From the NCBI RefSeq assembly GCF_053078305.1, contig NZ_CP166879.1: DNA of 64,000 bases; one strand, 5' to 3'. A model generated the notes under the pieces. It had not been told where the DNA came from and did not search any database. It saw nothing but the letters and a program-made list of their open reading frames with translations. The translations under genes were made by a program, and so were the position numbers. Position 1 is the first letter of the stretch. Every line of letters starts with the position of its first letter. Of the stretch, positions 17,792-18,128 are shown one piece after another.

Positions 17792-17868
17792 TGGTTGCGG
17801 GGGCCGGATTTGAACCGACGACCTTCGGGTTATGAGCCCGACGAGCTACCAGGCTGCTCCACCCCGCG
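17792..17868 (-). tRNA. metV: Initiator tRNA-fMet (CAU), copy 1 of 3
   Basis: Reverse complement reads CGCGGGGTGGAGCAGCCTGGTAGCTCGTCGGGCTCATAACCCGAAGGTCGTCGGTTCAAATCCGGCCCCCGCAACCA, the canonical E. coli initiator tRNA with encoded CCA; the metZ/W/V assignment of individual copies is arbitrary. Confidence 0.95.
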
Positions 17869-17900
17869 TCACCGTACTGCTTTATTTCATCAAATTTGAT

Positions 17901-17977
17901 TGGTTGCGGGGGCCGGATTTGAACCGACGACCTTCGGGTTATGAGCCCGACGAGCTACCAGGCTGCTCCACCCCGCG
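17901..17977 (-). tRNA. metW: Initiator tRNA-fMet (CAU), copy 2 of 3
   Basis: Identical 77-nt sequence repeated at a 109-nt period. Confidence 0.95.
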
Positions 17978-18010
17978 TCACCGTACTGCTTTACTTCATC
18001 AAATTTTAAT

Positions 18011-18087
18011 TGGTTGCGGGGGCCGGATTTGAACCGACGACCTTCGGGTTATGAGCCCGACGAGCTACCAGGCTGCTCCACCCCGCG
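18011..18087 (-). tRNA. metZ: Initiator tRNA-fMet (CAU), copy 3 of 3 (promoter-proximal)
   Basis: Identical 77-nt sequence repeated at a 110-nt period. Confidence 0.95.
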
Positions 18088-18100
18088 TCCGTGGATGCGC

Positions 18101-18128
18101 ACTATACTCCGCTCGCGTTTTCATGCAA
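18101..18128 (-). promoter_or_regulatory. Candidate sigma70 promoter of the tRNA-fMet operon
   Basis: Minus strand reads TTGCAT-16 nt-TATAGT followed by a GC-rich discriminator (GCGCATCC), just upstream of the first tRNA. Confidence 0.6.

Follow-up and report, generated by a model that had tools for sequence, protein, structure and literature searches.

Three identical tRNA genes lie in tandem at positions 17792-18128 of the window, by which we mean the whole 64,000-nucleotide stretch of DNA analysed here, and the question raised by this arrangement is which tRNAs the array encodes, how its transcription is controlled, and whether the array or its flank bears the marks of a recent rearrangement or of integrated DNA. 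Our answer, of which we are almost certain, is that the locus represents the growth-regulated metZWV operon of E. coli, in its standard three-copy allele and next to an empty island site. Nothing that contradicts this assignment was found. The window copy of metZWV is, therefore, already known in full and is an ordinary textbook housekeeping locus. The limits given for the array by an earlier sequence-only reading of this DNA turned out to be exact, with the 3′ end of the last tRNA at one border and the first base of the −35 hexamer at the other.

ARAGORN called exactly three tRNA genes within the 64-kb window, all of them tRNA-Met(CAT) genes on the minus strand, and the Rfam tRNA model scored each of them at 61.4 bits against a gathering score of 29. 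In the order of transcription, these are metZ (18011-18087), the promoter-proximal tRNA-fMet1 copy with an encoded CCA, assigned from ARAGORN, Rfam and the initiator marks described below; metW (17901-17977), the middle tRNA-fMet1 copy, assigned from ARAGORN, Rfam and its identity to the others; and metV (17792-17868), the distal tRNA-fMet1 copy according to ARAGORN and Rfam, the 3′ end of which forms the island junction in other strains. The genes measure 77 nt, are mutually 100% identical and start at intervals of 110 and 109 nt, while TRF described the array as 2.8 copies of a 109-nt period with 97% matches. Synteny identified amiC (16465-17718, plus strand) as the convergent downstream neighbour and mltA (18296-19393, plus strand) as the divergent upstream neighbour. 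Past amiC follow argA, recD, recB, ptrA and recC, and past mltA follow tcdA and csdEA. The amiC/mltA layout is also annotated in the K-12 derivative NEB10-beta and in strain PSS-11. When a 1.3-kb query across the locus was compared with complete E. coli genomes, 5,425 of 5,426 matched at 95-99.8% identity, and the flanking region was 99.8% identical to PSS-11 and 99.2% identical to K-12 lines.

The corresponding locus of NEB10-beta contains the same 77-mer three times, and the 60 nt upstream of the first tRNA, promoter included, are identical in the two genomes. Since the promoter agrees with that of E. coli K-12 base for base, the locus is the metZWV operon, with the gene order metZ, metW, metV. 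Indeed, every feature of metZWV that could be tested was found, namely the location between amiC and mltA, three identical fMet1 genes with G46, and the K-12 metZ promoter. The likeness to metZWV of K-12 (Kenri/Imamoto/Kano, Nagase 1988; PMC3017606) thus covers the tRNA sequence, the three copies, the 60 nt upstream, the first spacer, the terminator and the flanks. The differences between the K-12 derivative and the window are limited to the second spacer, which measures 33 nt in the former and 32 nt in the latter with small changes in A-runs, and to one base downstream of the terminator. The metY gene (tRNA-fMet2, upstream of nusA-infB) encodes the same initiator tRNA bar position 46 in K-12 (PMC3017606). 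Unlike metZWV, however, metY is a single gene at another locus outside the window, and its control differs, involving cAMP-CAP and ArgR (PMC3017606). As a landmark, metZWV places the window in the thyA-recBCD-argA-amiC-metZWV-mltA region of the E. coli core chromosome.

The labels given by ARAGORN and Rfam stop at 'tRNA-Met, anticodon CAT' and leave the CAT classes unseparated, so that, on these labels, the genes could also encode elongator tRNA-Met or the lysidine-modified CAT tRNA-Ile2 instead of initiators. Because the CAT anticodon is common to initiator, elongator Met and Ile2 tRNAs, we checked the initiator determinants directly. The anticodon occupies the standard positions 34-36 (cat at position 35 in the ARAGORN output for 3/3 genes). 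C1 stands opposite A72 and does not form a Watson-Crick pair at 1:72, which is the formylation determinant, and position 1 was unpaired both in the tRNA fold and in the Rfam alignment. The anticodon stem carries three G:C pairs at 29:41, 30:40 and 31:39 (G29-G31:C39-C41), the purine11:pyrimidine24 pair is A11:U24, the discriminator position holds A73 and the CCA end is gene-encoded. All testable features of a bacterial initiator tRNA were thus present. In addition, the 77-mer equals the K-12 metZWV genes, and the tRNA-fMet northern probe of PMC3017606 matched 3/3 window copies. These carry G46 and are of the tRNA-fMet1 type, as G46 marks tRNA-fMet1 and A46 the tRNA-fMet2 of K-12 (PMC3017606). 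The elongator or Ile2 assignment was refuted by these initiator identity elements and retains practically no probability. The claim of the sequence-only reading that three identical 77-nt tRNA-fMet genes repeat every 109-110 nt was thereby upheld, with ARAGORN, Rfam, TRF and the initiator marks in agreement. Judging from their identity in sequence to E. coli tRNA-fMet1 (PMC3017606), the initiator tRNAs of the window would receive a formyl group from Fmt and act in initiation at the P site. Conceivably, the 100% identity of the copies could also stem from a recent, strain-specific duplication, or from an assembly artefact, rather than from a stable operon, and a few genomes do differ in copy number, with a collapsed array in one assembly. 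However, three copies at metZWV were found in 55 of 60 systematically sampled genomes (∼92% standard), and the median genome carries four fMet genes, which corresponds to three at metZWV plus metY. Moreover, the two spacers are not alike: spacer 1 (17978-18010, minus strand; 33 nt) is identical to that of the K-12 derivative, whereas spacer 2 (17869-17900, minus strand; 32 nt) shows one indel and two substitutions relative to spacer 1 and ranges from 32 to 34 nt across strains with unchanged tRNA sequences. That the tRNAs are identical while the spacers vary indicates that the array is old, its genes being held uniform by selection or gene conversion, and the chance of a recent duplication or an artefact is negligible.

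The 3′ end of metV is a true hot spot for islands, and the window locus might on this ground be regarded as an integration site, occupied or decayed, that hides island or prophage remnants. The sequence-only reading had named tRNA genes as common integration targets, and this was substantiated for metV. Although amiC, metV and mltA are contiguous, as in the window, in 3,461 of 5,425 E. coli genomes, the match breaks 1-9 nt past the metV 3′ end in the other 36%, in which the interval is occupied. The occupied interval may hold a sugar-PTS cluster alone, which comprises 5.5 kb in, for example, E2863 (extracted region 1-5000), or this cluster plus a type VI secretion system (T6SS) island, a state seen in strain 536 with 37.4 kb between metV and amiC. 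The 31.8-kb T6SS island of E. coli 536 is flanked by two exact copies of a 41-bp direct repeat (368-408 and 32212-32252 of the extracted region), in which 14 nt from the 3′ end of metV are joined to another 27 nt. No integrase is annotated within the island, and the stretch from the distal repeat to amiC holds a separate PTS/sugar cluster of 5.5 kb. The T6SS island is PAI-metV/ETSS2, known to reside directly 3′ of metV in the ExPEC strains CFT073, 536 and W (PMC3032704, PMC2907695); the window shares the chromosomal site but lacks the island. In the window, genome comparison showed the metV-amiC intergenic region (17719-17791, no strand) to be an unoccupied hot spot of 73 bp up to the amiC stop codon, mostly filled by the terminator, and this interval contained neither tRNA-fragment repeats nor mobile-element genes. 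The 64-kb window held no tRNA 13-mers outside the three genes, the genes beside the tRNAs (amiC, argA and recD in one direction, mltA, tcdA and csdEA in the other) did not include an integrase, and the base composition of the locus was unremarkable, without any anomaly. The gene order is that of the K-12 core, and the features of an occupied tRNA-linked island, that is a foreign block on the 3′ side, a distal direct repeat and an integrase, were all absent from the window. The earlier remark that no integrase or foreign DNA adjoins the array was thus correct, and it is exceedingly improbable that remnants are hidden at this locus. From the empty, K-12-like metV site it follows that the strain has neither the type VI secretion island PAI-metV nor the sugar-PTS cluster next to it; PAI-metV T6SS and/or sugar-PTS occupancy applies to about a third of E. 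coli genomes. Across E. coli, the metV-amiC interval exists in at least three states (empty with 73 bp, PTS only, and T6SS plus PTS). Each of these states has its own terminator hairpin after metV, and the sequences become homologous again from the amiC stop codon onwards (TGA in the window, TAA in 536).

Transcription of the window metZWV operon is most readily attributed to the promoter that precedes metZ. The −35 hexamer TTGCAT (18123-18128, minus strand), which is the same in K-12, matches TTGACA at 3/6 positions and is separated by a 16-nt spacer from the −10 hexamer TATAGT (18101-18106, minus strand) with 5/6 matches. The combination TTGCAT-N16-TATAGT occurred only once in the window (18128-18101, minus strand) and in 0 of 100 shuffled sequences. 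TATAGT is followed by GCGCATCCACGGA and then by the first tRNA, a stretch that includes the GC-rich discriminator GCGCATCC, with G or C at 6/8 bases, and a short 5′ leader (together 18088-18100, minus strand). Transcription would start within this leader, the expected position being in GCGCATCCA at 18092-18100, and the 5′ leader would then be removed by RNase P. Two bases upstream of the −35 hexamer we read a tract of eight A residues (A8; 18131-18138, minus strand), which presumably sits where the proximal UP-element subsite of rRNA/tRNA promoters would be located. The 16-bp spacer, the near-consensus −10 hexamer, a discriminator beginning with GCGC and the upstream A-tract are features that we take to be shared with the ppGpp/DksA-sensitive promoters of the rrn P1 type, such as rrnB P1. 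By this analogy, metZWV would have a promoter of the rrn P1 type. Compared with that type, however, the −35 hexamer of metZWV is weaker with its 3/6 matches, and the ppGpp sensitivity of metZWV is taken from the literature.

A generic sigma-70 scan of positions 17400-18600, for which at least 4/6 matches were demanded in each hexamer, did not call any promoter. This reflects the threshold and not the absence of a promoter, because the −35 hexamer matches at only 3/6 positions. The function of the promoter consequently rests on the literature and on its identity to K-12. Two suppressors mapped to metZWV by Kapoor et al. 2011 (PMC3017606) are of the promoter-down kind: D27 is a T to C change inside the −10 box, D4 is a G to A change just upstream of the −10 box, and both of them reduce tRNA-fMet1 and reporter expression. 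The knock-out homology arm used in the same study, tgaaaacgcgagcggagtatagtgcgcatccacgga, maps to positions 18088-18123 of the window. Furthermore, ppGpp down-regulates metZWV during the stringent response according to Nagase 1988, as cited in PMC3017606. The promoter noted in the sequence-only reading, TTGCAT-16-TATAGT with a GC-rich discriminator, is therefore identical to that of K-12 and coincides with the published metZWV promoter.

At the other end of the operon, a terminator scan detected an intrinsic terminator (17756-17785, minus strand) with an 8-bp stem, GAACACCC/GGGTGTTT, a TAAC loop and a subsequent T-run. The hairpin lies 6 nt past metV, is the sole terminator-like site in the region and is identical to that of the K-12 derivative NEB10-beta. 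The reverse knock-out arm of PMC3017606 maps over it, to positions 17755-17791. A GCGCC...GCGCC motif at ∼17722-17747 was rejected as a terminator, since its stem has only 4 bp and the scan did not call it. Spacer-spanning Rfam hits to YrlA (27 bits against a gathering score of 69) and a hit to AaHKsRNA82 (24 bits against 51) were below threshold and were likewise discarded as tRNA-like or terminator structure.

From these elements, a working of the operon can be proposed. One sigma-70 promoter of the rRNA/tRNA type would give rise to a short tricistronic precursor with three identical tRNA-fMet1 units, and the transcript would end at the intrinsic terminator 6 nt past metV. RNase P would presumably process the 5′ ends of this precursor, endonucleases would cut within the spacers of 32-33 nt, and exonucleases would trim the 3′ ends as far as the encoded CCA. 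The mature tRNAs would be charged with Met, formylated and brought to the ribosomal P site by IF2. Since ppGpp reportedly lowers the output of metZWV, the supply of initiator tRNA would follow the growth rate. According to published work, most of the cellular initiator tRNA is derived from metZWV and the remainder from metY, and tRNA levels scale with gene copy number. Deletion of metZWV causes cold sensitivity, a loss of initiation fidelity and relaxed selection of the initiator in the P site (PMC3017606), and it impairs growth (PMC11480407). In the account of Samhita 2014 given in PMC9981150, having fewer initiator copies is a disadvantage in rich medium and an advantage in poor medium. Because tandem identical units permit unequal recombination, they account for the rare alleles with one, two or multiple copies in other strains.

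To place the three copies of the window in this context, copy numbers were compared across strains, as the sequence-only reading had recommended, using an overall mean and two systematic samples of 60 genomes. The fMet 77-mer was present at 21,174 places in 5,425 genomes, with a mean of 3.90, a median of 4 and a range of 1-8 per genome. In a systematic sample of 60 genomes, four copies were counted in 56, three in two, two in one and six in one. The window thus carries the usual number at metZWV, like the 55 of 60 sampled genomes referred to above. Variant alleles were verified at the metZWV loci of IAI39, with two copies, and Survcare045, with one copy. At the locus of NRZ95651 (extracted region 2671-4520), seven initiator tRNA genes were found, arranged as three genes, an IS1 plus a gene fragment, and another four genes. 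This 3+4 array resembles an IS1-associated segmental duplication. The existence of such natural alleles, with one, two and 3+IS1+4 copies, bears out the suggestion that the tandem units serve as a recombination substrate.

An apparent zero-copy allele in ST648 (CP008697) was dismissed, since a single N occupies the position of the array at ∼3990-4000 of the extracted region, between an intact promoter and the downstream terminator. This is an array collapsed in assembly and not a natural deletion. As the low count in ST648 is an assembly artefact, the true share of variants amounts to at most roughly 5-10%, and the case shows that low tRNA copy counts in 'complete' genomes call for care. It is possible, though in our estimation unlikely, that the spread of copies (1, 2, 3 and 3+4) reflects an adaptive tuning of initiator supply brought about by unequal recombination within the array, with growth rate set against start-codon fidelity; the other account of the spread is neutral noise or assembly error. 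This question concerns the species; the allele in the window is the standard three-copy one.

Some further features were observed along the window. Rfam hits at gathering level were obtained for CsrB (40958-41317, plus strand; 384 bits), GcvB (22572-22777, minus strand; 199 bits) and ES036/CssrF (19515-19557, plus strand; 46.5 bits), all of them in their usual E. coli neighbourhoods. PSS-11, the closest strain at the tRNA locus, carries a block of ABC-transporter, FGGY-kinase and LacI genes inside the fuc operon (extracted region 30360-36566), and positions 25000-42000 of the window show the standard fucP layout, as do 5,414 of 5,425 genomes. Lastly, six 29-nt repeats, GAGTTCCCCGCGCTAGCGGGGATAAACCG, occur with a 61-nt period at 63646-63979 (plus strand), and the series continues towards the window end at 64000. 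The repeat deviates by a single mismatch from the type I-E CRISPR repeat of E. coli, with none expected by chance, and the repeats at 63646-63979 belong to a CRISPR array that the window edge truncates.
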